A stretch of DNA of 64,000 nucleotides, from NCBI GenBank assembly GCA_016197155.1, contig JACPWF010000019.1:1485-65484 (forward strand). The letters are read 5' to 3'. The notes under the pieces are model-generated. The model saw nothing but the letters and a program-made list of their open reading frames with translations, was not told the DNA's origin and did no database searches. The position numbers were made by a program, and so were the translations under genes. This document shows positions 2,321 through 64,000 of this stretch, one piece after another; the first letter of the stretch is position 1; each line of letters begins with the position of its first letter. Origin of the DNA: Candidatus Omnitrophota bacterium (GTDB lineage: Bacteria > Omnitrophota > Gorgyraeia > 2-02-FULL-51-18).

Positions 2321-2323
2321 AAG

Positions 2324-2602: not shown

Positions 2603-2634
2603 GTGTACCCTATTTGGGATACAATTTCAAGTAT

Positions 2635-4263: not shown

Positions 4264-4269
4264 TCCGAG

Positions 4270-7932: not shown

Positions 7933-8108
7933 TTTTTTCCTGAAAATATCTCCGCATGATAACACAGATGTCACAAACGCGCTAGTAGGGCGACGGGTCC
8001 TGCCGCTGCGGACAGCCCAAATATTTTATGAGATTCTCATCATAAAATATTTAGGCGCCCGTCCTCCGCGTCACCCCTCGCTAGTATTACCGCATTTGTA
8101 GCGGTTGC

Positions 8109-9341: not shown

Positions 9342-10923
9342 GGAAAAATAATTTTTTCAATTCTTCGATCTTGAGCGCGAAGGCCGCCGCAAAATACACG
9401 GCAAGCGCCAACAGGATGCCGGTGAGCAAATAAAGCGACTGCCCGAGCCGCGAATCCGACAGATGCGCCCCGAGCACCGCGCGGTCGTAAAACCACGCGG
9501 CCGCGCCCATGAGAAGGGCCGCGGCGGCAATTTTAAGGAGGCTCGACAAAATTTTTTTCTCATCGAGCGGGCCGATTTTTTTCCGGAGGGCGATGAATAA
9601 AAGCGCCGCGTTCACCGTCGCCGAGAGGCTCGAGGCCAGCGTCAGGCCGCCGATCTTGAGCGGCCGCATCAAAATGAGGCTCAGGGCCACATTCAAAAAA
9701 ACAGCCACGGCCATGGCCTTCACGGGGGTGCGCGTGTCCCGCATCGCGTAAAAGGCGTTCACCAAAATTTTAATGAAACAGCAGGACAAAAGGCCGAACG
9801 CGTAAAAAAAGAGCGCGTTTGACGTGATCGCGGTCGAGGCCGCGTCAAAACGCCCGTGCTGAAAAATGATCCGCACGATCGGGCGAGACAGGACGACCAG
9901 GCCCACGGAGGCGGGCACGACGGCGAGGGCCAGCGAGCGCAGGGCCAGGGACAGCGTCTCCTTGAGACGCGAAATTTCGCCGTTCACCGCCTGCGCGGAA
10001 AAGGTGGGGAGGATCGCCTGCGACAGGGCGATCCCGAAGACCGCCAGCGGCAATTGAAAAAGCCGGTTCGAATAATAAAGCGCCGACTGCCCGCCCGTCC
10101 CCACGAAAGATTCGAAAGACGCCAGGATCGAATCGACAAACACGTTGATTTGATAAAGCGCCGATCCGAGCGCGCGCGGCAAAAGAAGCCGTCCCATTTG
10201 GGCGACGGCCGGATGCCTGAACGAAGGTTTTGAAAAATGAAAACCCTTGGCCAGAAGCGGCCTGACCTGAAAACTCAACTGTAAAACCCCGCCGGCCAAG
10301 ACGCCAAAGGCCAGCGCGAACGGCCCGTAGGTTTTTTCAAAAAAAATTCCGGCCAGGATCATGCAGACATTGAGGAGCGCGGGGCCCAGGGCGGAGCTTG
10401 TGAATTCTTTGAGCGCGTTCAACACGCCCATCGCCAGCGCCGAGAGGCTGATGAGAAAGATGTAGGGAAATAAAACGCGCGTGAGCCGGACCGCCAGCGG
10501 AAATTTATCGGGATCCGAAGAGCTCAGGAACCCCGGCGCGAGGAGCGCCACCACCTGCGGCGCGAAGAGCACGCCCGCCAGGCACAAAAGCGCCAGCGCC
10601 ATCACCAGAAGATAAAAAAAAGTGGAAACGAGCGTCCAGAACTCGTGCCTTTTCTTCTCCCAGGCCTCGGTGAGAACGGGCACGAGCGCGGCATTCGCGG
10701 CCCCTTCGCCCACGAGGTCGCGCAGGGTATTGGGGATCCGGAAGCTCACGACAAAGGCCTCGGCGTTTACCCCGGTCCCGAACGCCGCGGCGATGACCAG
10801 GTCCCGGACAAAACCCAGGACGCGGCTCACGCCGGTTAGGACGCCGATGATGCCCGCGGATCTGGCCAAATGACGATGGGTTGACATCTCAAACTCTTTT
10901 TTGTAGAATACGGGCTCTTTCAA
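9334..10923 (-). CDS. murJ: Lipid II flippase MurJ (MviN)
   Basis: 529 aa polytopic membrane protein. N-terminus ...GFVRDLVIAAAFGTGVNAEAFVVSFRIPNTLR... is diagnostic for MurJ. Confidence 0.85.
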   Translation of the reverse strand: MKEPVFYKKEFEMSTHRHLARSAGIIGVLTGVSRVLGFVRDLVIAAAFGTGVNAEAFVVSFRIPNTLRDLVGEGAANAALVPVLTEAWEKKRHEFWTLVSTFFYLLVMALALLCLAGVLFAPQVVALLAPGFLSSSDPDKFPLAVRLTRVLFPYIFLISLSALAMGVLNALKEFTSSALGPALLNVCMILAGIFFEKTYGPFALAFGVLAGGVLQLSFQVRPLLAKGFHFSKPSFRHPAVAQMGRLLLPRALGSALYQINVFVDSILASFESFVGTGGQSALYYSNRLFQLPLAVFGIALSQAILPTFSAQAVNGEISRLKETLSLALRSLALAVVPASVGLVVLSRPIVRIIFQHGRFDAASTAITSNALFFYAFGLLSCCFIKILVNAFYAMRDTRTPVKAMAVAVFLNVALSLILMRPLKIGGLTLASSLSATVNAALLFIALRKKIGPLDEKKILSSLLKIAAAALLMGAAAWFYDRAVLGAHLSDSRLGQSLYLLTGILLALAVYFAAAFALKIEELKKLFFRD

Positions 10924-10934
10924 AAAGGAACGTT

Positions 10935-11201
10935 ATGGCTCATCGCCGGTCATCCATCAAAAAAATCCGCACCGACAAGCGGCGCCGCATTCAAAACGTG
11001 CGGGTCATTTCGGAACTGCGGACATTCGCGCGCAAAGTGGGCGCCCTCATTTCCGAGAAAAAAGTCGCGGAGGTGGCATCCGCCTCGCGTGATTTTTTTT
11101 CGAGGCTCGACAGGGCCGTCAAAAAAGGCGTCGTTCACAAAAACCGCGCCTCCCGTCAAAAGTCGCGGCTTCAGCTCAAGATCAATTCCCTAAAGAAGTA
11201 A
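10935..11201 (+). CDS. rpsT: 30S ribosomal protein S20
   Basis: Internal ATG at 10935 preceded by AAAGGAA gives MAHRRSSIKKIRTDKRRR..., the canonical bS20 start. It is the only confident plus-strand housekeeping gene. Confidence 0.85.
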   Translation: MAHRRSSIKKIRTDKRRRIQNVRVISELRTFARKVGALISEKKVAEVASASRDFFSRLDRAVKKGVVHKNRASRQKSRLQLKINSLKK

Positions 11202-12153
11202 CCCGGATCAAAAACCGCTCGAGCGCCAGGCGCTCGCCTAAAGCGCCGGTCTTCAGCGCCTCATCGCAAATCAAAAGCTCGCGCAGGACCCCGCCGACTT
11301 TTTCCGCGCTCACGCGGCGGGCCTGAGCCAGCAATTTCTCCGCGAAAAAGGGATGGAGTTTGAGACGCGCGGTGATCTGCTCGGCGGAGAGCCCTTCGGC
11401 CGTGAGCCGGGCCGCCTGTTTCAGGCGGTCCAGACTCCCGGCGAGCACCGCCACGATCTCGAACGCCCTTGTCCCCTCGTCCAGCAAATGGACGGTCATT
11501 TGAATCAGCCGCGCAAAATTTTTCTCGATCCATAAATCCACGAGGCTAAACGCGTCCGCGGCGAGCGACCTTCCGAACAAGGCCTCGATGTCCCGTGTCT
11601 GAATCCCCGCTTTGTCGGCGGTAAAAATGGCGGCCTGCTCGATCGCGGGCGCGAGCGTCGAGGTCTGGCCGCCCACGCGCTCCATTAAAAGAAACGCGGC
11701 CTGCCTTTCAAGGGATTTGCCGTGACGTTTGGCGCGCGCGGCGATCCATTGCGGGAGATCCTTTTCGAAAGGCGGATGGCAGGGCACGACCCGGCAGTGC
11801 CCGGACAGCTCCCGCACGAACGCGTTTTTTTTCGTGTTCGTCTCCTCCGAGGCGATCACGAGAACGCTCGAGGAGAGAAGCCCGGCGTCCAGCCTCGCGG
11901 GGAGCGTTTTTTTCTCATCCTCCGCCAGGGCGCCGGCGTCCCACAAAACGGCCAGTCGTTTTTCACTCAGAAAAGGGACGGTGTCCAAAAAATCGAGGAC
12001 TGACCGGAGCGGGTGCTCGCCCGCGGTGAATTCCTGGAAATTGATCCCGGAATCGGAACGGCCGGGGAAATAGCGGTCGCGGAGGCCTTGAATAAATTCT
12101 TTCTTTAAAAAAGAATCTTTGCCGATGAGAAGGTAGGTTTCGGGGGCTACCAC
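11182..12153 (-). CDS. holA: DNA polymerase III subunit delta
   Basis: 323 aa delta-subunit-like. It sits in the conserved lptE-holA arrangement. Confidence 0.75.
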   Translation of the reverse strand: MVAPETYLLIGKDSFLKKEFIQGLRDRYFPGRSDSGINFQEFTAGEHPLRSVLDFLDTVPFLSEKRLAVLWDAGALAEDEKKTLPARLDAGLLSSSVLVIASEETNTKKNAFVRELSGHCRVVPCHPPFEKDLPQWIAARAKRHGKSLERQAAFLLMERVGGQTSTLAPAIEQAAIFTADKAGIQTRDIEALFGRSLAADAFSLVDLWIEKNFARLIQMTVHLLDEGTRAFEIVAVLAGSLDRLKQAARLTAEGLSAEQITARLKLHPFFAEKLLAQARRVSAEKVGGVLRELLICDEALKTGALGERLALERFLIRVTSLGN

Positions 12154-12692
12154 AATTCGATCGTTTTTTCGACCACGCGGCGCGCCAGGTCCTCGACGGC
12201 CTTCGCGGCGGCCTCATCCTCGCTCAGCGCGTGCGCGCCCGAAAGAAAAAAGGACGTGTCCCCCGTCAGGCCCTGCTCCCGCCAGAGGATCTTGTGGTCG
12301 CGCGCGCGGGTGACCGCGACATTGACCACCAGGCTCAAGCGGTATTCCTGCACGTCGTCCCCCTCGCTGTAGCGGAGCGGGTCGCGGCGGTAATCCGTGA
12401 GCTTGGCCTCCACGATCGCGTCGGCTTTTTCCGGAGAAGTGACTTTTAAATTTCCGTCAAAGATAAAACGGTTGATGATCGCGTTCGTCAGGTCCGCCTC
12501 GACGCCCGGGCGGTACGTGTGGAAGCGCGTGCGGTCGTCCGTCTCGTTCGACAGGTCAATGGCGTTTTTCACCGGCAAAATACTGATCGTTTGGATGTCC
12601 GCCGGCAGAAGCGATTTTTGCGTGTAGCCACAGCCGCCGGCATCGAAAAGGGCCGCGAGCGCAAACATTAAGAAAAAAAATTTTTTTGTCAT
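12147..12692 (-). CDS. lptE: LPS-assembly lipoprotein LptE-like (signal peptide + lipobox Cys)
   Basis: 181 aa with signal peptide ...ALFDAGGCGY (lipobox), located upstream of holA as in the conserved leuS-lptE-holA context. Confidence 0.55.
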   Translation of the reverse strand: MTKKFFFLMFALAALFDAGGCGYTQKSLLPADIQTISILPVKNAIDLSNETDDRTRFHTYRPGVEADLTNAIINRFIFDGNLKVTSPEKADAIVEAKLTDYRRDPLRYSEGDDVQEYRLSLVVNVAVTRARDHKILWREQGLTGDTSFFLSGAHALSEDEAAAKAVEDLARRVVEKTIELW

Positions 12693-13642
12693 TTGCCTTC
12701 TTTCACGATCCCGTCCAGCCGCTTCCGGGCCTCGGCAGACGCCGGAGTCTCGGGGTATTGGGTGATGAGGTCCTGGTAATAAACCCTGGCGCTGGCGAAT
12801 TTATTTTGCTTCTCATAAAAATCCGCGACGTCAAGCTGGGTCATCGCTTTTTTATTCCTCAGGGCCTTGATGGCCTCCTCGGCCTCCACCGACTGCTTGC
12901 TCGCGGGGAAATTTTCCTTAAACCCCTGAAATTCCTCGATCGCGCGGTCGGCATAGGTTTCGTTGTACTGGGATTTTTTCGAGGCCTGCATCGAGGAATA
13001 GGCGATCTGATAACGCGCTTGCGCCACGAGCGTGGAGCTGGGGTATTCGTCGACCACGGTCTGAAACGCCTTTTGGGCCTCTTCGTACTCGCCCTGCGAT
13101 TTGTAAAGCTCGCCGATCTTGAATTGGGCCTGGTCGCCGTAAGTGCCGAACGGCGCGTTCTTCACGATGTGTTTGTAAAGCTCAAGCGCCTTTTCCTGGC
13201 CCGGCAGGGCCGGCACGCCCAGGACTTTCAGCTTTCCGCCCGCGGCGAATTCATTGGCGATGTCGAACTCGCGTTTGACCGCGTCCTTGATCCGGTCGCT
13301 GTACGGGTAACGGTCGATGAGTTTTTGGTAGGCGTCGGCGGCCTTGGCGGTGTCCTGTTTTTGTTCCCACGAAAGCCCGGTGTAGTAGACGGCCTCGGCG
13401 GCCAGGCGTGAATTGGGAAACGCCCCCGGCAGTTTTTCAAACTCCTCGATCGCGCGGTCCCAGTCTTTTTTCTGATAGAAATCCTGGGCCCAGGCGAACT
13501 GCTCCTCGGGCGTGTCCTTGGCCGCCTTTTTGGGATTGATCCATTTTCCGATGTCGGGACTCCACATCCAGGAGGCCTGGGAAGTCCCGGCGGCGCCGAG
13601 CAGAATCAAAAAGACGAATAAAACGACGGGTCTCTTTTTCAT
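12689..13642 (-). CDS. bamD: Outer-membrane assembly TPR protein BamD-like (YfiO family)
   Basis: TPR-rich secreted protein. The probable start is MKKRPVVLFVFLILLGAAG at 13642, so the track ORF N-extension was trimmed. Confidence 0.55.
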   Translation of the reverse strand: MKKRPVVLFVFLILLGAAGTSQASWMWSPDIGKWINPKKAAKDTPEEQFAWAQDFYQKKDWDRAIEEFEKLPGAFPNSRLAAEAVYYTGLSWEQKQDTAKAADAYQKLIDRYPYSDRIKDAVKREFDIANEFAAGGKLKVLGVPALPGQEKALELYKHIVKNAPFGTYGDQAQFKIGELYKSQGEYEEAQKAFQTVVDEYPSSTLVAQARYQIAYSSMQASKKSQYNETYADRAIEEFQGFKENFPASKQSVEAEEAIKALRNKKAMTQLDVADFYEKQNKFASARVYYQDLITQYPETPASAEARKRLDGIVKEGK

Positions 13643-13658
13643 GGGAATTGAACAGGTA

Positions 13659-14240
13659 TTATACAAGATTCTTTCTTTTTTTCGGTACACTTTTCGCGGG
13701 CCTGTCCGCCTCGAGGTTCACGCGGTCCCGGACCCGGAGATCCCCCAGATTGGTCCTGGCCAGCGTGAGCGGCACGGCGTGCGCCCAAAACGCGCCGGCC
13801 CGGACCTTCCCCACCGTGAGACTGACGCCGTTCAGGGCGATCGAGCCTTTTTCGCGAATGAAGCGGCGAGTGTCGGCCGGCGGGCGGATGAGGAAACTTT
13901 TTTCGCTCCGGGTGGTTTTGATTTCCAGCACGCGGCCCGTGCCGTCCACATGGCCCGGCACAAAATGGCCGCCCACCCGCCCCTTCCATTTGAGCGGGCG
14001 CTCCAGGTTCACCCGCTCCCCGGCGCCGAGGCGCGCGAGGTTTGTCCGAAGCCGGGTTTCTTTCAATAAATAAAAAAAGAGCCGCCCGCCTTTTTTCTTT
14101 GAAACCGTCAGACAAGCGCCGTTCACGGACAAACTGGCGCCGATCGGCAGACGCCGCATGCGCGCGGGAACTTTGATTTCCAAAAGAGACTTGCCGGGAC
14201 GCGCGACAACGCCCAAATCCTCGATGATCCCCGTGAACAT
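13659..14240 (-). CDS. ribE: Riboflavin synthase alpha subunit
   Basis: [12 protein letters not shown]... and GASLSVNGACLTV lumazine-binding repeats. The ATG at 14240 overlaps the ribD stop. Confidence 0.85.
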   Translation of the reverse strand: MFTGIIEDLGVVARPGKSLLEIKVPARMRRLPIGASLSVNGACLTVSKKKGGRLFFYLLKETRLRTNLARLGAGERVNLERPLKWKGRVGGHFVPGHVDGTGRVLEIKTTRSEKSFLIRPPADTRRFIREKGSIALNGVSLTVGKVRAGAFWAHAVPLTLARTNLGDLRVRDRVNLEADRPAKSVPKKRKNLV

Positions 14241-52183: not shown

Positions 52184-55100
52184 TTAAACCGCCTGAGCGG
52201 CCATGCGGGCGGCGAAGGCAAAGGCCCGCATTTGGGCTCCGACGGGGACCGGGCGCGGGAGGTACAAATAGAGGGCGATGATCCGAGGATCATTCGTCTG
52301 CCCCAAAATAACCAGAAGAAGTTGGGGCAGGTTATTAACGGGAAATCCGGCCGCCCTGGCCCATTCCACGAAAACGGGATTGGAGGCGGCCATGTCCGAA
52401 GCGGCGAAACGCGATTCGGTCAAGGCGGCGCGCAGGATAAAGTTGAGATTGGGAAGGCCGGGTGATTTGAGATTCACGTAAAAATAACGCTCGCCGGCCC
52501 GGGGCGCGAAGGGCCGATTCACGTCGGTGATTTTGACGGGACTCATTCCCCGAGGCGCTTGGTCGAGAATCGCCTCTGCCGCGCCAAGGCCGGTCGTCAT
52601 TTTTTTAATGGCCTCTACTCTTGCCGAATCACCGCGGAGCACAAATCGGGCGAGCGGGTCTCTCCTGGATTCAAAAACGATCGTGTAAGCCAGCATCGCC
52701 GTCATGTAGGGCGAGCTCTCGCGGGTGTAAAAATCGTCGACGTTCAGCTCGGCCGCTCCGGCCATTTTACTTAAATCTTCGTGCGCGGCGGTGAAGCGAT
52801 CGATCCGCATGAGCTCAGCGCCGAGGGCCTCTTTCAAATCGGCTTGAGAAATCTGGATCCCGGATGGGATTTGAGCGGTGGCGGTTGACGAGGCCTGATG
52901 TCTGGCCTGATACAATAAAAACGGATAATCTTTGCGCTCAATTCTGACGGCGGCCCCTCCTGTCCCGAGAACAAAAAGCGAGCCGTCTTCACTCAGCCTG
53001 ATCTCGAGCACTCTGCCGTCGAGCGCAATCAGGCCGGTTTTTCGTTGGGCATCGTAAACGAGAACGGTGAATTGGAGGAGCGATTGATCGTTTATTTGAT
53101 CAATAATTTTCTGAGAAACCGACGTAGCGAACTTGGGGTCTGACCCCGCCAAGATCCGTCGTTCTTTCCGCGCGCTGTCGGTGACCGCCAGCCTCGCGGC
53201 GCGGACTGCAGAGGACGATTTTTTCGGGCCAAAAACCCACAGGTCGACATAATTGTAGGATTGGGGGCCATTATCGAGGCCTGTAATAATCGAGCTCACG
53301 CGTGTTCGATAGCCCTCTTCGGAGTGCGCTCCTCTAACCTCATCCGCCACTTTCCTTATTTCCGCTCGGATCATTCGCCCCGCCCATTCTGGAAACAGCC
53401 CGCCATGCTCGAGGATAAAGCGGACATGCGCCAAAGTGCCGGGGGACTTTTTGCCATTGACAGCATGCGGCGCCAACTTGAATCTCAAATACCTGTCGTC
53501 AGGACTCGTTACCTCCGGACGTTTTTCCAGAAGTTCAGCTTGAATGCTCTGCCCTTCCGCCAGCCGCGCGCCGCGTGGCGCTTCCGTCGTCAAAACAAGG
53601 TTCGAGCCGTCTCCGTAAAAATGGTTTTCCGCAAACAGCCTGAGGCCAAACGTCCATAGATAGCGTGCGGATGGAATTTTGACGATCCTGTATTCCTCGT
53701 CGGTTCGCGTGTCTCTGAGAACCAATCGCGAATCTGCCCCGGCGGCATCAAATGCCTCTTCTATCGCCTTCAGCTTCAAAGCCAAAAGTTCCTGTCTTTT
53801 CGAAAGCAGTCCACTCAAAATATCGCGCGCGATGGGATTCTGACCGGCCCGTTCGATCCAGTCCCGGAGAGTGTCAGGCACACTCTCCCATCCGGCCGCC
53901 TCACTCGCAAGAGACCGCAAAAAGCGCGCAGTTTGTTGATAAACTGGGGCCTGCGCCTTGGCCATCGTCGAGGGGGACTGCGCGAAAAGCGAATAGTTTC
54001 TGTCAGCCTCAGAAACAGCGTTGTTCAAAAGCTCGACGGCCTCGTCTCTCCCCATCAAAATTCTTTGTGTTTCGGGACCATCCCCTGCCAGCCTCGCGGC
54101 CGCCGGCCGTGCGCGGCGTTCATCCGGCTGGATTTGTGCCCGTGGTTTATTGACTCCTCCAATATTGTATTTCCTCGCCACATTCAGCAAAGGTTCCGCC
54201 AGTGGATTCTTAAAATTTTCCAGATTTTTAAAAATATCCCGCAGAAGGTCTTCATTCGCGAAATTTCCAGTGTCAAAAAAAGCGTTGTATGCCTTCAAAA
54301 AATCATCTGTCAAGCGAAGCCGTCTTTTTGACCCCGCGGGAATCTTATCCAGCATGCCCAAGGCCAAGGCGGCATAATCGTTTGTGTCTTCTCCTTCCCA
54401 AGCCCCTGCGTGAGGTGTTTGACTTTTCCGATTTGCCTGTTGTTTAACGAAAGAATCGAAATAAATGGGCAATCCACGATTAAAGCTGTCCCTGGTTTGC
54501 AAATCACCGAACCAATGGTAAATCCGAACGACAACACCCCGTATCCTTGTCGCCATCCGCGCCCCCCTCGACTGCGCTCGGGACAAGCCTCGACGCGTCT
54601 CGTTGCGCTCGACTTGCTCGGGACTGGTTGGCCCTTCGCCGCGGAAGCCCTGAGCAAGGCCCGAAGGGCCGCGTCGAAGGGCCAGCCTCGCCCCAGCGCT
54701 CTCTTCCGGGCGCGCTATGAACCGAATGAAGCCCCTCTCGCAATCACTCTCAGAATAGATCCCCAAGCTCCCGGAAACCATCACAACGTCTACTAGGGCT
54801 CCATTGATTCTTCGTTTGAGCCGCCTCAGTATCTGTCCGCGGTTAACAATCTTTCTGCCCGTGAAAGTTCCAACGGTGGTCACTTCAACTATATCACCGG
54901 CCTGCCACCGGTCAAACGGCAGGGGATTTTGCGGTAAACCGACCGGAGAAATTCCTCCTTTTGAAGCATTGCTTCGAGCGGAAAGCCTCGCCCCCTGCGA
55001 AGAGTCAGAGACGGGTGACGAAATAAAATAAACAATCAGTCCCAACACCAATCCCGACGCCAGGCCAAGGAGAATATTCTCGAAGATCAAACCAAACAAC

Positions 55101-58100
55101 GCCCCAACCGCCATGCCGGAGGCTATGAATCCCGCAAGCCACATCCGGTTTGAATCCGCCAGCCGCGCGGCGGAAGAGCCGCTTGTAGTTTCGGTAAAAA
55201 TTTGAATCGCCCGGGTTTCCATCTCTACCGCGTCATTAAATGCGCGTCGGAGCGCTTCCCCGGGAAAGCCGGCAAAACCGACGCCGACGTTGATCGTGCC
55301 GTGATTGGCCAACAAAAGTTCGTTGACGCGAACGATCTTTTTGCCGACTTCCGCCGCCAGAGGGTCTCCGGGAAAGGTGTAATGGATGCTCACAATCGGC
55401 TCCTCGCCCTCACGAAGTCGAAAAGTGTGCCCAACGTTTCCGCTTGAGGCAAAACCCGTCGCCACGGGCGAATGGACATGAACCACCGCCTGCGCATCGC
55501 GCCGCGCGCGATAAATCGCCAGATGAAAAGCGGTTTCAGAGCTGGGCTTCAGATTTTCCCCAAGCCCCTTCACGCGGTGTCCCGCTTCAAGATCCACACC
55601 CACATATTCTTCCGGCCGCATGTCTTCAAAGGCTTTTCCGCTGGCTTTGATCAGGATAATATCTCTTTCGCCATTCGAAGTTTGGAGACGGACTCGGACG
55701 CTGGTGTTGCCTCCCGGTCCCACGACCAGTCTTTTCTGGGCAATTTGCCTGCCAACCGCTGTCAAAACCTCCCGCGCGCTTGCAATCGCATGGTCACTGG
55801 CCAAATTTTCGCCCAAATCCATCACTTCGGCTTTTGTTTCAACCGGTTTTCCTTCCAGCTCCGCCTGACGGTCCAACTCAATGGGCGATCCCAAGAGATC
55901 ATTCGCCTCCTCCTCACTCAGCCCCGTAGGCCTTCCGAGAATTTCCGACACCATCCTCGTCCGAATCGAATCCACTTCAACCATCGCGCGGAAAAGAGCT
56001 TCCCTTGAATTGGTGCCGACAGCGATGAGGCCGTGACGCGTGGTCATCACAACGGTATGCCCCGTCATGGCCTCGGCGATTTTCGGGTCCTCATCAACCA
56101 GCAAAAGCGGCCCTCTTTCTTTCGGCAAGGCGATATGGTCCGGCGTCACCAGAGGCAGAAGCGTTTCCGGAGCATTCCATTCATTCTCGTCAAACCGTTT
56201 TGCCAAAAGCGCCTGCGCGGCGGCGGGCCTTGACTGCACGATGAATTGGACTTTTTTATTTTTTTCATAAATAGCCCGGTGAATTTGCTCAATTTCTTCC
56301 GTCGCCTCCCCCGCAAAAATAACACTCTCACCCACGCGCATGCTGACCACCGCGTAATCGAGCCCCTCTTCTTGACAGCGCGCCAGTAAAGGTTGAAGCT
56401 CTCCCCGTAGCCACTGCGCTTCGCTAGTCAGCGCCGTCCGGGCGGCAGATTCGATCAGCCTGTTGACTTCTCTCAGAAACCGGCCGGGATATTCAGGATT
56501 TTCGAAACTCCGCATTTCCCTTTGTTCGATGGCCGCAATACCCTTTTGCTCCGCGCGGCCGAGAGTGTCCGTATAACCACTGACGATCAAGATACGAGAC
56601 TTATCAATATGTGCCTCCTGAAGAGAAGTTAAGATCTCCAAGAGAACCGTCGGATTGCTTCCGCTATACACGGCGATCACCAGATCCGGAGGGTTTCCAT
56701 CCGATTTCAGAAACGCTGGCACAGTGTCGAACGAATCGACATGATATTGGCCTGACAAGGCCGCCATCTCTTTCTCCGTAGATCGTGCGTCACCGATTAC
56801 CACAACGTGGGGGAGTTGCGCCGCCAAACCCGCTAGCCGCGCCCCCGGTATTTCCGGCGTGAAAATTTCCCGGCGGCCTCTTTGAGCCCAGACATTTCCC
56901 TTCAGTCCCGACATGGCCTCAACCTTCGGAGAAGGCAGTCCAAACCGGTCCGCGGTAAGTTCGCCTATCAGGACGGCGATGGCAAAACCGTACTCGATTG
57001 CCGCTTGAAAATAGTCCGAGGCCCCCGGAGTCCGGTTCGTAAAAAAGTAGGTGTTGTACCCGCCCGCCCACGGCGCCAGATAATCGATCTCGATCATATC
57101 CTTTTCAGAATCGAGCCCAACCTCCTTCCCCGCCTCCAAAAACGCCCTGCGGAAAAGTTTTGTTGTCGTCCGGTGATGCGGATGGCTGTCCTCTTCGTGC
57201 GGAAGGATGTAAATAAATGGAGTGCCGCGCGCTTTGGCGGTTAAAATTGCATACCGATTGGCTTTGAAATACGCCCGCGCGATCCCGAGCGCCGTCGGAT
57301 ATTCCTCATCCCACAACCACTCCGGAGGACCGCCGACCCGGTGCGCGTAGGCGGGGAGCAACAAATCAAGCCACTTGACCTCGAGCGGCTTCGGCATTCC
57401 CTCTGAAAGAATCGAGGAAGCCTTTTCCACTTCCAGGCGCCGGATAACGCGCCGCGCGACCTGTTCGAGGCCGACGGACATTTCCTTTCCCGCAGTCCAA
57501 TGGGAAACTTCGAGTTTTAGATTCTCAACTTCGCCAAACGTCGTGTACCGCGTCTCAAAATCTCTTCGAGCATCGCCCGGGAGTTTCTCCAAATCAAGCT
57601 CCGAAATAACCCGCCGATACACCCCGTGTTCTCTTTGAATTCTCTCCCAAAACGCGCGCGCCTCTTCCTCGTTCAAACTTTTTAGGTACCCGATCGCAGC
57701 CGCCACCTGATCATCGCTCAAACGAGCCACCCCGCTGTCTCCCGCGCCGGCCACCCAGTTTTGAACCGAAATGCCCGCCCTGAGCGAATTAAGAATAAGG
57801 CCCGCCAGCGCGATCACGTCATCGTCCGGATGCGGAGATAAAATGACGAGCGGGTACGCACGACTTATTTTTCCCAAAATATTTTTTGCCTGTTCCGGAG
57901 TAACCGGGGTCGCGTTTCCTTCGGCATCATAATGCATCACCGTGACGGGATTGGCATGCCCGGCCGAATCCTCCAGAAGACCTCTGATCTTGCCCATCGA
58001 GGCCCCGTATTTTGCCAGCCACTTCAGCACCGCTTCATAACCCGTTCTAAAAAGCTGCGTCAAATGAGCGCGAAGCGCCGAAAGGGCCTTTTCCAAATCC

Positions 58101-61100
58101 TCCTGTCCCTTTCCGAAAGGAATGTACGCATTGACGGGGTTGGCGATCCGCGGAGGAACCGATTCATAAAAAATCACCTCGACCGGACGGCGGGCCCGGT
58201 TGACGTATTCTTGAACGGCCCGCCTCACAAAGCGTTCCTCGGGTTTGTTAAAACCGTCGTTCGGCACAATGAGAATCCGGGGGTCAAATCCGTTTAAATT
58301 ATTTGAAAGATCTTCCAAAGAAAAATGACGGACGGTATTTTTGTAGGCCAGCTTTTCAAATTCTCCGATCACCTCGCCAAAAAATGGCGCGGAATCGCCC
58401 TCTTCCAGCTCCACGACCGCAATCCCGGCATCTCTCGGAAGCGCGCCGTACTTTACTCCTTTGGCTTGCTCGTCCTGTGGAAGATTTGACAAAATCACGC
58501 CGCCCGCTTCCGGAAGCGGGAGAAACTGCCTCGCACCGGCCAGCCGGGCGGCAGGGGCAGGCATGGAGGGTTTTCCCGGCTTTTCGAACTCCCGGTAGAC
58601 CTCAACCATTAAAGTTAAAGGGGTCAAATCTTTCTTTGACTGCATGTTCCCCGCCAACCGCGCGGCGAGAGCGACAGGATTATTTCCAAAAATAAAAGGA
58701 TGTGTTATACTCTCCGCAATGCTCACGAAAAATTTCTGGACGGAGAAAAGGCTCGATGCGGTGGGCAAGACCTCTCTGACACTGTTCCAAGCGTTTTTGA
58801 TCGCCGCGGCGCTGGGAGGAATATTCGGTAAAATCGAGTCCGGTTGGCATAAGGCCCTGTTTGTCGCGGCAACCGTGATATTTTTGGCTTTGGGCATCAC
58901 TCTTTCGGATAACAAGCCAAAGGAGAAATAAAATGTTCGGACTAATAACTGCCATCGTGATCGGGCTGGTTCTATCCATCTGGATAGCCATTGAGCGGTA
59001 CCAGCAGAAACACCGGCATTCGCATTAATTCTTCCGCAATTCCACCCTTCCCTTCCCGCCTGATTTCCGTCTCCTGACAACTGTGTTAAAGGGGTCAAAT
59101 CTTTCTTTGACTGCATGTTCCCCGCCAATCGGGCGGCGCTGGGATTTTCTCGCCCTTCGCTGACTACTGTCTTCTGTCCACTGACTCCTGTCTCTTCTCC
59201 CGCCAGCCGCCCGCCACTAGGGCGTTGGCGCCCGTCCGCCGGATCTGTAGTGGCGGAGGCAGGCGCGGCGTTCGGGCTTATAGAGAAATAACGGTAGCGG
59301 TCTGCGCTCGAAGGATTTCCGGTTTGAATGAAACTGCAATTGTAATCTTTATCCGTAAAAAGCCTCCTAATCTTATCCAGCCGTTTATTGATCGCTTGAA
59401 GGTCCTCGGTATTTGTATTTGGTGGATAGGAAATACACACGCGCCATTCGCCGTCTGCCTCGGTTAAGACTGCGTCGTGATATTCCTGCGGTACTCCTCT
59501 GGCAAACTCAAGCATCTTGGAGGTATCCCCGGCAGTAAACCCCGCCAGGCGGGCCTGCCCGTCCGCCAGGCGCGCCCCCTGCCCTGAGCCTGCCGAAGGG
59601 GTGGCGCGGCGGGTAGCAAGAATACGGAGAATGCTTTCTTTCTCCGCCTCGTAATTTTTACCATGTTTGCCGGAAAGGGCTACCGCCTCCGAAAGCCCGG
59701 CGTCAAGATTCTCCTCGTTTTGGGCAAACCAGTTGACGCTTCGCACGGGCCCAAATGCTGGGGCGTCCGGACGCCCTCGCGTTTGAAGATAGGTCCGGAT
59801 CTTATGCATGATCTGATTGTTATCTCTGATAGTATCCGTTTGCGCCGGCCCATCCACCGTGATGACTGACTCCGCAATGAAGTCCTCGTCCACTCCGCTT
59901 CGTATTAGCAAAGCGATCAGGAGGAGTTTGAACTCTTTTCTCCTTTCACCAAATAAAATAGGGACTCTCTCTTGTTCTGCCTGGGCGGGATCCCTTTCGT
60001 TTTTTTGTCTTCCTCTGATTACCGCCCACCGGTTTCCGCCCACTACCCTTCCCCCCGCCAGGCGAGCGGCGGAAATGTCACTATGGGAGCGCAGTGGGTT
60101 TGGATAAGAGACCAGCGCTGACGGGAGAAGTTCATCGTCACTTTTTTCACCGGAAATTTTAAAGTCGGGTATTGTCTGCCTTGTCTCCAGATCAAAAGCG
60201 CTGAGCGAGCCGTTCCAATCCCTAATCACAACAAGCCGGGAGTCCTGAGAGATTTTGTAGGAGTAGACCGTTTTGGCTTCCAGGCCTGCTATTTTTTCTC
60301 CCGTGCTGAGATCAAAAACGTTGAGCGATTCGCCGGGCCAGCCGTGAATCACGATGAATTTGGAGTCCGGGGAAATCCGGAAGGAGTGGACGTCGGGGAT
60401 CGGGTTTCCTATTTTCTGTCCCGTTTTGAGATTAAAGATATCCAGCGAGTAATCGGCCGTGTACCAAACCACAACGAACCGGGAGTCCGGGGAAATGTCG
60501 AAAGATTCGACATTTTTAGAAGTTCTCAGAACGGGCGCTTCCTCTCCCGTGTTGAGATTGAAAGCGGCTAATGAGCCGTCGTTGTACAAAATCACAACGA
60601 ACTGACTGTCCCGAGAGAAAACGCGGGTAATTTCGTCGGCGCGGGCATTCACCACGAGCGCCATGGATCCGGAACTGCCGCTTATCGAAAAGGCCGTCCG
60701 CGGCGGGATCGAGATCGAATCTCCTTTGCGCAGAAAGATGCTCGGATACCCGTCCGTTTTCAGGTAGACACCGCCCTGCCCTTCCCCCACAAAAATTTGA
60801 GTTTCGTCCGGACGCGCCTCAAAGGATTGTTCGGTCGCGCCGTCCTCATAAAAGTAGCGGCGGAATTCAAGGTCGCCCTCCAGGATTTGCCGGAAAAGAG
60901 GTTCTTTTTTATCGGCAACGCGAACGATGCCCAAATCTTCGCGCGTGGTCCTGCCGTCCCGCTCCGAACGGACCTTGGCGGCATTATTTTTTCTGCGAAC
61001 ATAGGGCAGGCTGGTCATAAAAATAAGGTGCAGATCCCCGTCGCCGGTCGAGGTGATCGAGTGCATCGCCCCCGCCGGAATCATGAAAAAATCTCCGGCC

Positions 61101-64000
61101 TCAACTTCGATGGATCTTCTCCCGATGTGAACGACGCCCTTGCCCTCGCGGATATAATAAAATTCGGGATGCTTTCTTTGCCCGACATGGTGTTTGTGCT
61201 TGGGGAGGCGGCTTTCGCCGGTCAGGGAGGCGGTGTTCATCAAAACGCCGGGGCCTTTCTGCATGCGTCCCAATCGAATGCGCACCGAAGGATTCATGGG
61301 GGCGCGCTTAACGGCCGTCCCGAAACTCACGATTCGCCCGATCTTGCTCACCGTGGGATCTGTCAAAACAGTCGAAATCGCCCGCTCAAACCGCTCCTGC
61401 AAACTGACACCGGCCGTTTCTTTCAAATCCAGAAAGTTCCCGGCGATCGCCTTCGCCAAAGCGTAAGGGTGATAGCCTCCAGTGGCGCCTTCGACCACGA
61501 CTTGAAACGGGGAGTCCCTGCCAGGCCCTCGAGGGTTTACTTTCACAGTCAAGCGGCGCCCTTTAAAATCCGCCTCGACCGACTCTATTCCCGCTTTTGT
61601 TAATTCAGCGTCCGTGTACGCATTGTCACTCAATCGCGCGGCGGATTCACTCGAAGGCTTGAAAGGCTCGATCACGATCCTGCCGTGGACATGATCGACC
61701 GTTAAAGTAAATCGCTGATCAAAAGATCCGGCGGGCAACCGCTCTGTAATCATACGATCCAAATGGTTAGTTATGTTCGTTGTTTGTTTACCATCTCTAA
61801 GCGTCGGTAAATAAATGCTGTCGATGAACACGTCATTTCCTTTGTCTGAATAAAAGACCTGGACAAAGCCTGTGGGCGACACTGATTCCCAATGGGACAG
61901 GATGGACATAGCCTCCCTCACTAAATTACTCTCCCGAACCACCATCGGGTCGGCGGTGCGAGGCCCATGCTGTTCAGCTAAAGGGGTCAAATCTTTCTTT
62001 GACTGCATTTTCCCCGCCAACCGCGCGGCACTGGGATTTTCTCGCCCTTCGCTGACTACTGTCTTCTGTCTACTGACTTCTGTCTCTTCCCCTGCCAACC
62101 GCGCCGCTTTATACGTTCGTAGTTTTTCTGCTATCAACACCGGCCGCATGCCGTCCTTTAATTCTAAATCCCGAAATTCACGCACCAACATTAGTGAGCG
62201 ACGGTCATTTGGACGGAACATCGTTTTTGGAGATTGATACCCGGAGAATCTCCTTTCGTGAAAGAAAATATTGTACGCTTCAAAACGTTCGATTTCCTGG
62301 CTGGAAAAAGGCTGTCCGTCTTTACGTGTAACGGATAAACGAATAGTCCATGTCTCGGACGTCTTACAAATACCAATGGTCATCAGGTAGGGCCCGTGTT
62401 TTATTGACAACTCGTCTCTAAAATTACTCCGAGGGGGCCGCTCGTCACGAGCTTTCTTCACAGCGCCGACGATGAAGCCGGTAATTTGTTCCCGTTTATT
62501 TTCAAATATAAACCTGAGAAAACTGTCAACGAAAACTCCAAAACTCCGGTAGTTCAATAAATAGTAGATATAGTTAACAAAACTAAACATGGGAGAAAAG
62601 CCGATACTTGTCCCTAATTGTAAAATTTTATAGGGATAGCTAAAAAGTAAACCACCCAACACAAACAGCCATGGAAGAAATATTCCGTATCTAGAAAACT
62701 TCCATAGCCCATAGGTTACGGGTTTCCAATCGCTCTCTTTTGCAGGCATTTTGTTTTCCAGACTCGCCAGCCGCGCGGCAGATGCAGGCGAGGCGTGCCT
62801 TCTCGCCTCTTTCAAAAGTCTGTTGATTTCTCGGCCTTGCCGCGTTTGACCCCAACGTCTTTCTATGTTTCCTTCCTCAATGAAAGCTCTATGAGGATTC
62901 CCAGGAGACAAGCGAAAGAAATGCCTCGGGTCTATACGACCGGCCGCTTCATCCGCGACCACAAGAACGGCGTTCTGCGCCAGATGCATCCAGGAAGCCG
63001 TGGCGCTTGAATTAGGCGGCATCGCCCAAGAACGCCGGAGCGCTTCGGCTTTATGCGGACCGGCGACCATGAACAAATTGACCGAGTCTGGATTATTCGT
63101 GCGAAGCATAATGTCGCCGGTGCCCTGGGTGAAAGCGTACCTTGGAGTGACATCGTAATTGTCTAACGCATATTGAAAAGCCTCTTGAAAATGTTCGAGC
63201 GATGCAAACTGGTATTTTGTTTCCGGATAATGCCCGGCCAATTTGTCGAAAGTAATCTCTTCCAGCATCCCGGCCAAAATCTCGATCAAGTCCAAAAGAT
63301 GCGCGATGCCGCTGTCTCCCATAAAACGCAGGAAAAACGGATGAAAGGCTGGGCCGAAATGACCACGATTTTGCACTTGAGTGGCTTCCACCACTTGAGT
63401 CAAATGATCCGGCCTCAAAACTCTTAGAGACTGAGGAACTCTTTCCAGGGAATCGGGAATACGCAATCCGGGAAAGTGCTTCGCGGGGTCGCCTCTCCTT
63501 AGGTCTGGTGAAGGTAGGAGGAAAGGATCATTAAACGCATCATGTCCGGTTGTTCCAACGCCGTGAAGTTGAAGCAAAATCCTTTCTGCAGCTTCCATAA
63601 ATATAGCCATAAGCCTGACATAATTAACACTACTATCGACCCATGGAGATACAAAAACAGGCGGCGATAAAAACTGTCCTTTGATATGCTCAATCGGGAA
63701 TTTTCTTCCCAATAAATTGACCAACATCATGTAAAGCTGTTCTTCGCGGTAACTGGACAAAGCGTACACTTGCGGATCAGTGACCATCTTTTCACCGTCC
63801 ATAGGCGGCCAGAAATAATCATCCAACGTGGTCCATCGCTTGGCTTTGTCAAAAGCCTTTAAAGTAAATTGACCTGGAAACGCCTGTCCAATCAGGTTCC
63901 AAAGTCCCAAGGCTTTTCGCAGGCTTTCGGTGGTTCCACCGGTGGCCAGACCAAAATTGAACTGCTCCTCGGCCGCATGAACGAGAGCCAAAACAAGGTG
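52184..64000 (-). CDS. Giant modular ORF (>3935 aa, N-terminus beyond the window). It consists of heterogeneous enzyme-like and membrane modules joined by linkers carrying a recurrent (A/G)ARLA(G) motif.
   Basis: 11.8 kb with no stop codon in one frame, and no long ORF on the opposite strand. The minus frame carries recognisable domains: a cupin (about 61000-61200), a 4-bladed beta-propeller/WD-like repeat (about 60150-60650), an LmbE/PIG-L deacetylase (SPHPDDD, about 57800), tandem class II aldolase/adducin domains (GGNTSVR...HVHSP, about 55200-56300), and TM segments. Confidence 0.75.
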   Translation of the reverse strand, partial: HLVLALVHAAEEQFNFGLATGGTTESLRKALGLWNLIGQAFPGQFTLKAFDKAKRWTTLDDYFWPPMDGEKMVTDPQVYALSSYREEQLYMMLVNLLGRKFPIEHIKGQFLSPPVFVSPWVDSSVNYVRLMAIFMEAAERILLQLHGVGTTGHDAFNDPFLLPSPDLRRGDPAKHFPGLRIPDSLERVPQSLRVLRPDHLTQVVEATQVQNRGHFGPAFHPFFLRFMGDSGIAHLLDLIEILAGMLEEITFDKLAGHYPETKYQFASLEHFQEAFQYALDNYDVTPRYAFTQGTGDIMLRTNNPDSVNLFMVAGPHKAEALRRSWAMPPNSSATASWMHLAQNAVLVVADEAAGRIDPRHFFRLSPGNPHRAFIEEGNIERRWGQTRQGREINRLLKEARRHASPASAARLASLENKMPAKESDWKPVTYGLWKFSRYGIFLPWLFVLGGLLFSYPYKILQLGTSIGFSPMFSFVNYIYYLLNYRSFGVFVDSFLRFIFENKREQITGFIVGAVKKARDERPPRSNFRDELSIKHGPYLMTIGICKTSETWTIRLSVTRKDGQPFSSQEIERFEAYNIFFHERRFSGYQSPKTMFRPNDRRSLMLVREFRDLELKDGMRPVLIAEKLRTYKAARLAGEETEVSRQKTVVSEGRENPSAARLAGKMQSKKDLTPLAEQHGPRTADPMVVRESNLVREAMSILSHWESVSPTGFVQVFYSDKGNDVFIDSIYLPTLRDGKQTTNITNHLDRMITERLPAGSFDQRFTLTVDHVHGRIVIEPFKPSSESAARLSDNAYTDAELTKAGIESVEADFKGRRLTVKVNPRGPGRDSPFQVVVEGATGGYHPYALAKAIAGNFLDLKETAGVSLQERFERAISTVLTDPTVSKIGRIVSFGTAVKRAPMNPSVRIRLGRMQKGPGVLMNTASLTGESRLPKHKHHVGQRKHPEFYYIREGKGVVHIGRRSIEVEAGDFFMIPAGAMHSITSTGDGDLHLIFMTSLPYVRRKNNAAKVRSERDGRTTREDLGIVRVADKKEPLFRQILEGDLEFRRYFYEDGATEQSFEARPDETQIFVGEGQGGVYLKTDGYPSIFLRKGDSISIPPRTAFSISGSSGSMALVVNARADEITRVFSRDSQFVVILYNDGSLAAFNLNTGEEAPVLRTSKNVESFDISPDSRFVVVWYTADYSLDIFNLKTGQKIGNPIPDVHSFRISPDSKFIVIHGWPGESLNVFDLSTGEKIAGLEAKTVYSYKISQDSRLVVIRDWNGSLSAFDLETRQTIPDFKISGEKSDDELLPSALVSYPNPLRSHSDISAARLAGGRVVGGNRWAVIRGRQKNERDPAQAEQERVPILFGERRKEFKLLLIALLIRSGVDEDFIAESVITVDGPAQTDTIRDNNQIMHKIRTYLQTRGRPDAPAFGPVRSVNWFAQNEENLDAGLSEAVALSGKHGKNYEAEKESILRILATRRATPSAGSGQGARLADGQARLAGFTAGDTSKMLEFARGVPQEYHDAVLTEADGEWRVCISYPPNTNTEDLQAINKRLDKIRRLFTDKDYNCSFIQTGNPSSADRYRYFSISPNAAPASATTDPADGRQRPSGGRLAGEETGVSGQKTVVSEGRENPSAARLAGNMQSKKDLTPLTQLSGDGNQAGREGWNCGRINANAGVSAGTAQWLSRWIEPARSRWQLLVRTFYFSFGLLSERVMPKAKNITVAATNRALCQPDSILPNIPPSAAAIKNAWNSVREVLPTASSLFSVQKFFVSIAESITHPFIFGNNPVALAARLAGNMQSKKDLTPLTLMVEVYREFEKPGKPSMPAPAARLAGARQFLPLPEAGGVILSNLPQDEQAKGVKYGALPRDAGIAVVELEEGDSAPFFGEVIGEFEKLAYKNTVRHFSLEDLSNNLNGFDPRILIVPNDGFNKPEERFVRRAVQEYVNRARRPVEVIFYESVPPRIANPVNAYIPFGKGQEDLEKALSALRAHLTQLFRTGYEAVLKWLAKYGASMGKIRGLLEDSAGHANPVTVMHYDAEGNATPVTPEQAKNILGKISRAYPLVILSPHPDDDVIALAGLILNSLRAGISVQNWVAGAGDSGVARLSDDQVAAAIGYLKSLNEEEARAFWERIQREHGVYRRVISELDLEKLPGDARRDFETRYTTFGEVENLKLEVSHWTAGKEMSVGLEQVARRVIRRLEVEKASSILSEGMPKPLEVKWLDLLLPAYAHRVGGPPEWLWDEEYPTALGIARAYFKANRYAILTAKARGTPFIYILPHEEDSHPHHRTTTKLFRRAFLEAGKEVGLDSEKDMIEIDYLAPWAGGYNTYFFTNRTPGASDYFQAAIEYGFAIAVLIGELTADRFGLPSPKVEAMSGLKGNVWAQRGRREIFTPEIPGARLAGLAAQLPHVVVIGDARSTEKEMAALSGQYHVDSFDTVPAFLKSDGNPPDLVIAVYSGSNPTVLLEILTSLQEAHIDKSRILIVSGYTDTLGRAEQKGIAAIEQREMRSFENPEYPGRFLREVNRLIESAARTALTSEAQWLRGELQPLLARCQEEGLDYAVVSMRVGESVIFAGEATEEIEQIHRAIYEKNKKVQFIVQSRPAAAQALLAKRFDENEWNAPETLLPLVTPDHIALPKERGPLLLVDEDPKIAEAMTGHTVVMTTRHGLIAVGTNSREALFRAMVEVDSIRTRMVSEILGRPTGLSEEEANDLLGSPIELDRQAELEGKPVETKAEVMDLGENLASDHAIASAREVLTAVGRQIAQKRLVVGPGGNTSVRVRLQTSNGERDIILIKASGKAFEDMRPEEYVGVDLEAGHRVKGLGENLKPSSETAFHLAIYRARRDAQAVVHVHSPVATGFASSGNVGHTFRLREGEEPIVSIHYTFPGDPLAAEVGKKIVRVNELLLANHGTINVGVGFAGFPGEALRRAFNDAVEMETRAIQIFTETTSGSSAARLADSNRMWLAGFIASGMAVGALFGLIFENILLGLASGLVLGLIVYFISSPVSDSSQGARLSARSNASKGGISPVGLPQNPLPFDRWQAGDIVEVTTVGTFTGRKIVNRGQILRRLKRRINGALVDVVMVSGSLGIYSESDCERGFIRFIARPEESAGARLALRRGPSGLAQGFRGEGPTSPEQVERNETRRGLSRAQSRGARMATRIRGVVVRIYHWFGDLQTRDSFNRGLPIYFDSFVKQQANRKSQTPHAGAWEGEDTNDYAALALGMLDKIPAGSKRRLRLTDDFLKAYNAFFDTGNFANEDLLRDIFKNLENFKNPLAEPLLNVARKYNIGGVNKPRAQIQPDERRARPAAARLAGDGPETQRILMGRDEAVELLNNAVSEADRNYSLFAQSPSTMAKAQAPVYQQTARFLRSLASEAAGWESVPDTLRDWIERAGQNPIARDILSGLLSKRQELLALKLKAIEEAFDAAGADSRLVLRDTRTDEEYRIVKIPSARYLWTFGLRLFAENHFYGDGSNLVLTTEAPRGARLAEGQSIQAELLEKRPEVTSPDDRYLRFKLAPHAVNGKKSPGTLAHVRFILEHGGLFPEWAGRMIRAEIRKVADEVRGAHSEEGYRTRVSSIITGLDNGPQSYNYVDLWVFGPKKSSSAVRAARLAVTDSARKERRILAGSDPKFATSVSQKIIDQINDQSLLQFTVLVYDAQRKTGLIALDGRVLEIRLSEDGSLFVLGTGGAAVRIERKDYPFLLYQARHQASSTATAQIPSGIQISQADLKEALGAELMRIDRFTAAHEDLSKMAGAAELNVDDFYTRESSPYMTAMLAYTIVFESRRDPLARFVLRGDSARVEAIKKMTTGLGAAEAILDQAPRGMSPVKITDVNRPFAPRAGERYFYVNLKSPGLPNLNFILRAALTESRFAASDMAASNPVFVEWARAAGFPVNNLPQLLLVILGQTNDPRIIALYLYLPRPVPVGAQMRAFAFAARMAAQAV
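58612..58667. repeat. Dispersed repeat R1 (short form, 56 nt) lying in-frame within the giant ORF
   Basis: ttaaaGGGGTCAAATCTTTCTTTGACTGCATGTTCCCCGCCAACCGCGCGGCG. It contains the hairpin GGGGTCAAA..TTTGAC..CCCC and encodes AARLAGNMQSKKDLTPL on the minus frame. Confidence 0.7.
58719..58931 (+). CDS. Small membrane protein (70 aa, 2 TM), encoded antisense inside the giant ORF
   Basis: MLTKNFWTEKRLDAVGKTSLTLFQAFLIAAALGGIFGKIESGWHKALFVAATVIFLALGITLSDNKPKEK. TATACT lies 7 nt upstream of the ATG, suggesting a possibly leaderless transcript. Confidence 0.4.
   Translation: MLTKNFWTEKRLDAVGKTSLTLFQAFLIAAALGGIFGKIESGWHKALFVAATVIFLALGITLSDNKPKEK
58933..59028 (+). CDS. Small hydrophobic peptide (31 aa, single TM, type-I-toxin-like architecture), encoded antisense inside the giant ORF
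   Basis: MFGLITAIVIGLVLSIWIAIERYQQKHRHSH, preceded by a perfect SD AAAGGAGAAA with 6-nt spacing, 2 nt after the stop of the upstream small gene. Confidence 0.5.
   Translation: MFGLITAIVIGLVLSIWIAIERYQQKHRHSH
59086..59216. repeat. Dispersed repeat R2 (long form, about 131 nt) lying in-frame within the giant ORF
   Basis: Same 5' part as R1, plus the CTGACT-rich 3' part. It is almost identical to R3. Confidence 0.7.
61978..62108. repeat. Dispersed repeat R3 (long form, about 131 nt) lying in-frame within the giant ORF
   Basis: Near-identical to R2 over about 130 nt. Confidence 0.7.

Follow-up and report, generated by a model that had tools for sequence, protein, structure and literature searches.

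A conserved pair of small membrane-protein genes apparently nested antisense within a giant multi-enzyme gene of Candidatus Omnitrophota

The stretch of DNA analysed here, 64,000 nucleotides (nt) of contig JACPWF010000019.1 from a Candidatus Omnitrophota bacterium, in the following called the window, contains on its minus strand a giant multi-enzyme open reading frame (ORF) that extends from 52184 to 64000, stays open throughout, and runs off the window end. Inside this ORF two direct repeats, R1 and R2, delimit a unit of 471 nt. Most likely this unit is a junction-bounded module of the giant gene, and its real information is a small operon nested on the plus strand, which the giant frame merely reads through. 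Based on their conservation in related loci, the two plus-strand ORFs of the unit are regarded as real genes lying antisense within the giant ORF. Both frames appear to be under selection, the plus frame under purifying selection on the protein and the minus frame against stop codons only. A functional gene needs its own stop codons, and for that reason an uninterrupted ORF can accommodate it only on the opposite strand or in a different frame. We propose that the sequence between the repeats, the island, is a self-contained plus-strand operon comprising a promoter, a protein of 70 amino acids (aa) with two transmembrane (TM) segments, and a translationally coupled 31-aa peptide with one TM segment. 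Ribosomes on the giant mRNA would cross the island on their way to the modules downstream of it (PIG-L-like, class II aldolase, and others). Because they must cross it, the absence of stop codons would be the sole constraint on the giant frame there, and this constraint would be met by the relative phase of the two frames together with the choice of synonymous codons in the small genes. An earlier sequence-only reading had already noted direct repeats flanking a segment inside the giant minus-strand ORF, and this observation holds.

The unique island comprises 417 nt (58668-59084) and is used on both strands: on the plus strand as an operon, and in the giant frame as a stop-free, non-protein-like filler of 139 codons. 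The codon score of the giant frame is positive along most of the ORF and collapses only between about 58630 and 59380, so that the low protein-like quality previously ascribed to the translation between the repeats is confirmed. The Pfam domains of the giant ORF in the window share one frame and are located on either side of the island. On the plus strand, 58683-58711 reads as a sigma-70-like promoter (TTTCCA-17-TATACT, extended by TG); 7 nt separate its end from the start codon of gene 1, and its TATACT box had been recognised at exactly this distance before. Gene 1 (58719-58931) encodes the 70-aa protein, a member of a conserved uncharacterised family. The Shine-Dalgarno sequence of gene 2, AAGGAG at 58920-58925, is located inside the end of gene 1 and 7 nt before the next ATG, in agreement with the ribosome-binding site already proposed for this gene. 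Gene 2 (58933-59028) encodes the 31-aa peptide with a basic, His-rich tail and is coupled to gene 1 by a TAAAATG stop/start overlap. Hydropathy analysis shows two hydrophobic segments in the product of gene 1 and one in that of gene 2. The coordinates of both genes are those given by the sequence-only reading, and it is the conservation that argues for their being real.

An exhaustive HMMER search with gene 1 revealed 12 relatives, of which the best shares 64% identity (E = 1.5e-19), and a profile search yielded 31 clusters. For comparison 15 related loci (L001-L015) were fetched. Every complete locus contains a gene-2 counterpart of 30-34 aa after gene 1 (consensus MFxLITALVL...WIAIExYxxKHRxH), which starts 1 or 4 nt past the gene-1 stop codon, usually as TAAAATG. 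An AAGGAGG-type Shine-Dalgarno sequence inside the end of gene 1 is also conserved across the other loci. At the DNA level, conservation among the loci is limited to the two ORFs. When the same bases are compared across the loci, the plus-strand proteins are on average 59% identical (BLOSUM 3.03) and the antisense translations 45% (BLOSUM 1.95), and the variability at the three plus-strand codon positions (0.23/0.13/0.48) is the normal pattern for plus-strand coding sequence. Promoter-like sites of the type TTGACx-17-TAnnnT are found 5' of gene 1 in L001, L003, L005, L007, L008, and L009. In two loci gene 2 is followed on the plus strand by a strong terminator-like hairpin and UUUUGUUUUG (L007, z = -5.0, about 6340-6370; L008, z = -2.2, about 1334-1385). 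These two hairpins lie inside the antisense frame of the respective giant gene and might also attenuate its transcription.

The most straightforward alternative would be that the segment codes for the giant protein in the ordinary way, for example for a low-complexity or disordered module, and that the plus-strand ORFs are accidental mirror-frame ORFs. Long antisense ORFs are indeed common inside the giant gene; nine other long plus-strand ORFs were found there in the window and none has a Pfam match, and therefore they were treated as mirror-frame ORFs. In addition, a mirror frame whose wobble positions coincide with those of the true frame often scores well. However, the family of the 70-aa ORF is conserved and has free-standing members, and start codon, Shine-Dalgarno sequence, stop/start overlap, and stop codon are conserved in all loci. 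The better conservation of the plus frame on the same bases as well as the promoter-like sites and terminators also contradict this explanation, which we regard as largely refuted by these comparisons and thus very unlikely.

Returning to the nested operon, the strongest evidence for a constraint on both strands is the avoidance of stop codons. The earlier statement that the giant frame crosses the segment without a stop is confirmed, and the openness is unlikely to be accidental (P = 0.0008 in shuffled sequence of island composition). Given the two proteins and resampling their synonymous codons, the probability of an open frame in the window is 0.0015-0.006, and the codons of gene 2 taken alone avoid antisense stops with P = 0.003-0.02. 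The same arrangement is found in ten distinct loci in which the cassette is embedded (the window, L001-L004, L006-L009, and L010/L011). In these, the antisense frame is open over 275 to more than 4,600 codons with 0 stops in the shared phase, several of the open frames run across the whole fetched contig, and the probability of being open given the proteins is 0.0002-0.04 per locus. L010 holds a run of N. The phase of the gene pair relative to the giant frame is identical in all embedded loci, and the other two antisense phases contain 1-14 stops. The shared phase makes the wobble positions of gene 1 fall on those of the giant frame, which is the least costly arrangement. In the free-standing loci L005, L012, and L013, by contrast, the antisense frame is not open across the cassette and contains 4, 4, and 2 stops, respectively, in the shared phase. 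Two ambiguous loci, L014, which ends at the contig end, and L015, which is degraded, were left out of the stop count. At codons for which a synonym would generate an antisense stop, none of 58 in the embedded loci uses such a synonym, compared to 8/12 in the free-standing L005. Examples from the window are Phe TTC instead of TTT at 58785, Leu CTA at 58942, Ile ATA instead of ATT or ATC at 58945, and Val GTG at 58957. Pfam domains are found in frame downstream of the island also in L004 and L006, and the open frames around the cassette are considered to represent genuine giant coding sequences.

It could also be imagined that the giant ORF is in fact two genes and that the island is a functionally intergenic spacer whose open frame is a coincidence or an assembly artefact. 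Gene callers would agree with such a view, because in L010, L013, and L014 they place the start or a split of the giant gene at the island. In L010, for example, the start was called at 3961 although the frame is open over all 14 kb (1-14080). However, the recurrence of the open frame in ten distinct loci against 1-14 stops in the other two antisense phases, the avoidance of the risk codons in 58 of 58 cases, and the unconstrained state of the free-standing copies render this possibility extremely unlikely. The small genes have been called almost only on contigs shorter than 2 kb. Giant and nested genes alike are probably subject to systematic mis-annotation.

Several points weigh against the nested operon as interpreted here. 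The loci are of shared ancestry, which means that the per-locus probabilities are not fully independent, although the wobble positions are near saturation (0.48 non-consensus). The shared antisense phase could stem from selection instead of common descent. In the window, codon usage does not give the small genes a clearly positive score, and the only signs of expression seen are sequence signals, namely promoter, Shine-Dalgarno sequence, and terminator. Concerning the function of the small proteins, the 70-aa protein does not match anything in Pfam, NCBIfam, PHROGs, or the PDB sequences beyond sub-threshold noise, the best of which are MscL, MFS, and holin at E values of about 0.003 or weaker. 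A close orthologue of the giant gene that could show this junction with or without the island is missing from the databases searched. Direct repeats bracket the island in only three of about ten embedded loci, and none were found in L002, L006, L007, L008, L009, and L010. Finally, the junctions described below are no more than putative cleavage sites.

The repeats had previously been placed at 58612-58667 (R1) and 59086-59216 (R2), 474 nt or 158 codons apart, with an identical core of 56 nt. These values needed correction. R1, the short form, covers 58614-58667 and R2, the long form, 59085-59215; the distance from start to start is 471 nt or 157 codons, which leaves the multiple of three intact. 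The shared core has 54 nt (59085-59138 in R2), of which 52 positions match R1, including an identical run of 44 nt at 58614-58657; where R1 has GCCAACCGCGCGGCG, R2 has GCCAATCGGGCGGCG. A third copy, R3 (61977-62107, minus strand), is located at another module boundary. It is identical to R1 at 51/54 positions and to the long form of R2 at 118/131 positions, and it is thus R3 and not R1 with which the long form of R2 pairs. The 24-mer of the repeat core, AAAGGGGTCAAATCTTTCTTTGAC, is present in three copies in the window against 0.00 expected. Translated in the giant frame on the minus strand, R1 encodes AARLAG-NMQSKKDLTPL (ARLA codons at 58652-58666), and R2 encodes (G)RLAG-EETGVSGQKTVVSEGRENPSA-ARLAG-NMQSKKDLTPL.

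The ARLAG peptide is not restricted to the repeats. Within the window, the giant ORF contains about 18 sites of the form [GAV]AR[LM][AS], for example at 62093-62107, 60056-60070, 56831-56845, 55157-55171, and 53558-53572 (all minus strand), and the next ARLAG junction downstream of R1 in the giant frame follows after 37 codons (58538-58552, minus strand). The strict motif [GA]AR[LM]A[GDE] has 11 matches, each of them in the giant frame; it is absent from the remaining five frames of this region and from every frame of the other 52 kb. The codons of the junctions vary synonymously (Arg CGG/AGG/CGC/CGA; Leu CTG/TTG/CTA/CTT), and thus it is the peptide that has been kept and not the DNA. The motif falls between recognisable domains; residue 2928, for instance, is the last of the Aldolase_II domain, and a junction follows at 2941. 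The full giant protein (P0001) has three distant giant relatives (P0002-P0004), each of which repeats a junction peptide of its own, namely GARLA (P0003), KPASSDLG (P0004), and ...ASAG (P0002); RSEVR... is another junction peptide among the related giant proteins. A NagB-like module shared by all four giants starts right after one junction and stops right before the next, with junction sequences that differ between the four proteins. Because the junctions are located at equivalent boundaries of a shared module, R1, R2, and R3 are best described as copies of the gene's own module delimiter. Comparing these peptides, we conclude that R seems to be one sub-type of the inter-module junction of the giant gene (the [GA]ARLA[GDE] family) and not a foreign element. 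[GA]ARLA[GDE] and the related junction peptides are candidate polyprotein processing or linker signals. Two linker pieces of the window, RRGPSGLAQGFRGEGPTSPEQVERNETRRG (54587-54676, minus strand) and APASATTxPADGRxRxSGGRLA (59198-59266, minus strand), are each repeated nearer the N-terminus of P0001, beyond the window, and RRGPSGLAQGFRGEGPTSPEQVERNETRRG, taken with FDGAQDRTLSRVEG close by, has the appearance of a palindromic repeat that is translated.

In the sequence-only reading the segment was compared to the palindromic elements inserted in frame in Rickettsia genes. According to this explanation, R would be a mobile palindromic repeat (a Rickettsia palindromic element (RPE), a miniature inverted-repeat transposable element (MITE), or a repetitive extragenic palindromic (REP) sequence) that inserted in frame, bringing the cassette along or capturing it. 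Near-identical copies do flank the island, R contains a short inverted repeat (GTCAAA/TTTGAC), the junction repeats of L004 contain two clear palindromes, with one copy having a different hairpin of the same shape, and the P0001 linker pieces mentioned above resemble translated palindromic repeats. However, the supposed hairpin of R in the window is not more stable than shuffled sequences on either strand (z about -0.7 for the core and -1.0 to -1.5 for the long form) and was therefore dropped as evidence. Three of the three copies in the window are in the giant gene and in its frame, which removes the basis for a mobile repeat there and leaves the finding of nested genes untouched, and the synonymous variation of the ARLAG codons over about 18 sites indicates selection at the peptide level. 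An exact search with the 24-mer in 185,579 representative genomes, among which the source genome is not included, did not give any match. Thus, R would have to be called a junction linker, and its origin as a mobile repeat is unlikely. Structure is also not apparent next to the repeats: the region from the gene-2 stop into R2 in the window folds with z = +0.15, and an Rfam scan of 58000-59700 at E <= 1 had zero matches. An inversion switch of the shufflon type was considered as well and dropped because the repeats are direct and not inverted.

The preferred interpretation as a junction-bounded module raises the question of how the island came into the giant gene. In the window the 54-nt junction copies (96% identical) stand on either side of it. 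The corresponding junction copies of L004 have 79 nt and are 95% identical and 612 nt (204 codons) apart, with a third copy elsewhere of 67% identity. In L003 a TM-coding part of the host ORF is present on both sides of the island in 119-nt copies, which are 90% identical and 1,326 nt apart. The island of L003 additionally includes part of a second gene 1 (6328-6417) as well as a gene for a CopG-family antitoxin on the plus strand (6489-6758; PF12441, 43.7 bits, above the Pfam cut-off), which is likewise antisense and stop-free in the giant frame (P = 0.019), as is the partial gene 1. The local junction peptide flanks the cassette on both sides in the window, L004, L002, and L008. Direct duplications of host sequence around an insert are expected from the single-crossover integration of a circle sharing that sequence, and they also predict that the island could be lost precisely and in frame. 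The island may thus have entered, and could leave, via recombination between junction copies, and entry by a single crossover is proposed here with moderate confidence. A recombinase was not found among the ten ORFs nearest the giant gene, the only ones scanned. The idea of a flanked cassette that was inserted in the ORF and persisted as a stop-free multiple of three stands in so far as stop avoidance is found in ten embedded loci and brackets also in L004 and L003; it does not stand as a one-off insertion, as giant ORFs of many lineages contain the cassette in this antisense phase.

Concerning the fate of the translated island, the junctions might serve as linkers or as processing sites, and the nonsense translation of 139 residues would be a separable spacer. 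If the junctions are processing sites, the spacer would be cut out. The operon and the giant gene are transcribed convergently, which must interfere to some degree, and expression of the operon would be antagonistic to the full-length giant mRNA. It is tempting to extend these considerations to the giant multi-enzyme genes of the Omnitrophota and their relatives in general. These could be in-frame cassette arrays in which lineage-specific junction peptides delimit the modules and act both as processing sites and, in the DNA, as recombination points, DNA is taken up in either orientation as long as it is stop-free, nested genes (the small operon and, in L003, CopG) are carried antisense, their nonsense translation is cut out, and operon and giant mRNA regulate each other by convergent transcription. 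As a whole this picture is tentative and rather improbable.

The only hint at a function of the small pair is given by L012 (8001-8412, plus strand, contig Ga0484001_0000446), where the free-standing pair immediately precedes a complete nuoA-B-C-D-E-F-G-H (Complex I) operon in the same orientation. A second, divergent nuo cluster is encoded there on the other strand. A tblastn search with gene 1 against plasmids and phages gave zero matches. The sequence-only reading had compared the arrangement to type I toxin architecture, in which the 31-aa peptide would be a membrane toxin and the complementary giant mRNA would restrain it. Its size, single TM segment, and basic tail do resemble type I toxins, and its gene is fully complementary to a long, presumably expressed mRNA. 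However, the peptide is always the second product of a coupled pair with the conserved 70-aa protein, and the pair is free-standing without an antisense giant ORF in L005, L012, and L013, heading the nuo operon in L012. In addition, there are no PHROG holin or NCBIfam toxin matches, and there is no Rfam match. The toxin comparison is weakened accordingly, and we consider a type I toxin-antitoxin-like module to be quite unlikely.

P0001, the protein encoded by the host gene of the operon, comprises 5823 aa, of which the C-terminal 3,935 codons are in the window; the 5.7 kb of the gene past the window end were available as protein sequence only. P0001 is identical to a protein from a metagenome-assembled genome at NCBI, assigned to Candidatus Omnitrophica, whose annotation reads only 'class II aldolase/adducin family protein'. 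Taxonomy follows the labels given by submitters: the Omnitrophota label of P0001 comes from the name of the NCBI record, and several of the related loci are labelled Planctomycetia. Pfam domains of P0001 are HATPase_c, HEAT, Cupin_2, PIG-L, and Aldolase_II, the last three of which are found in the window in the giant frame on the minus strand at 61019-61210, 57143-57844, and 55208-55765, respectively. The gene is surrounded by ordinary bacterial chromosome genes, among them those for DnaG, RpoD, RsmE, and a histidine kinase. Among 5.8 billion clusters, only the three distant giants P0002-P0004 (3,825-5,967 aa) were found as relatives, and the enzyme sets differ among the four proteins. The NagB/glucosamine-6-phosphate-deaminase-like module (window about 63000-64000, minus strand; GLATGGTTES...HG.G..GHDAFN...TQGTGD) is the sole module common to all of them. 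Adjoining the cupin domain, at 60217-60616 (minus strand), are four repeats with a period of about 120-123 nt that resemble beta-propeller blades (...ISPDSRFVV...DGSL..F(N/D)L.TG...); the Pfam beta-propeller matches are weak. Between an ARLAD and a GARLS junction at 54992-55153 (minus strand) there is a module of 54 residues with two hydrophobic segments in sense direction. Thus, small membrane modules occur in frame in the giant gene, too.

Convincing antisense-nested genes of bacteria are few and disputed, because most of them have been described from one genome and with expression data only. The case presented here contributes comparative evidence: the same operon in the same phase, with antisense stops avoided, in giant ORFs of at least ten lineages, and the free-standing copies as a natural control. 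The usual polarity would be reversed, with the embedded genes being conserved and the host frame being the filler, and this implies strong selection for the uninterrupted translation of giant genes. The junction peptides are the first concrete candidates for the 'cleavage points' said to be missing in the work on giant proteins of Omnitrophota, and with them polyprotein processing becomes directly testable by metaproteomics. For annotation, it means that gene callers miss nested genes and cut giant genes at such islands.

Several known systems share single features with this arrangement. RPEs are dispersed, structured, non-coding repeats that inserted in frame in ORFs. As with RPEs, extra sequence in a multiple of three, here 471 nt without a stop codon, is tolerated in an ORF because it is stop-free. 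In contrast to RPEs, the inserted sequence appears to represent a gene cassette, flanked by a repeat that serves the host gene itself as a linker and in the window is confined to that gene and does not form a stable hairpin. In type I toxin-antitoxin systems such as Hok/Sok and TisB/IstR, the gene for a small hydrophobic peptide overlaps a complementary RNA, and the gene-2 peptide (<60 aa) resembles them in both respects. It differs in being coupled to a second conserved membrane protein, in having no dedicated small antisense RNA, and in having free-standing copies without an antisense partner. Campbell-type integration, the single-crossover integration of a circle sharing host sequence, leaves direct duplications around the insert, and such duplications of 54, 79, and 119 nt bracket the island in three lineages. 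The attC sites of integrons follow the scheme RYYYAAC ... GTTRRRY with paired R and L boxes. R reads GTTAAAG...GCCAAC, the order of GTT and AAC thus being reversed, its fold is not significant, and it was rejected as an attC site. Unlike in Campbell integration and integron arrays, a recombinase is not found within the ten ORFs scanned, there is no attC-type site, and the repeats are translated inside a reading frame.

The giant host gene fits the class of 'multi-enzyme metabolic clusters' described for giant proteins of Omnitrophota (bioRxiv 10.64898/2026.06.07.730766). Like P0001, these proteins are longer than 5,000 aa and tiled by many unrelated enzyme and regulatory domains, and their cleavage into products is suspected by the authors as well. 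West-Roberts et al. 2023 also suspected proteolytic processing and stated that the cleavage points are unknown (bioRxiv 10.1101/2023.11.21.568195). A term search of the text of both studies did not reveal any mention of junction peptides that recur or of genes nested antisense. The closest parallels to the nested operon are the embedded antisense overlapping genes (OLGs) of E. coli O157:H7 and Pseudomonas aeruginosa, such as ano and the long OLGs of P. aeruginosa (PMC5960689, PMC9927249, PMC8850804). In both cases an ORF with its own expression signals lies wholly inside a gene on the opposite strand, as the pair at 58719-59028 (plus strand) does within the giant minus-strand ORF and its counterparts do in nine further distinct loci, and both strands are constrained. 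In OLGs, however, the embedded ORF is young and has been overprinted on an older conserved host gene, whereas here it is the embedded unit that is conserved and exists independently. Also unlike in OLGs, the host frame serves as stop-free filler within a giant modular gene, and at least ten lineages show the arrangement.

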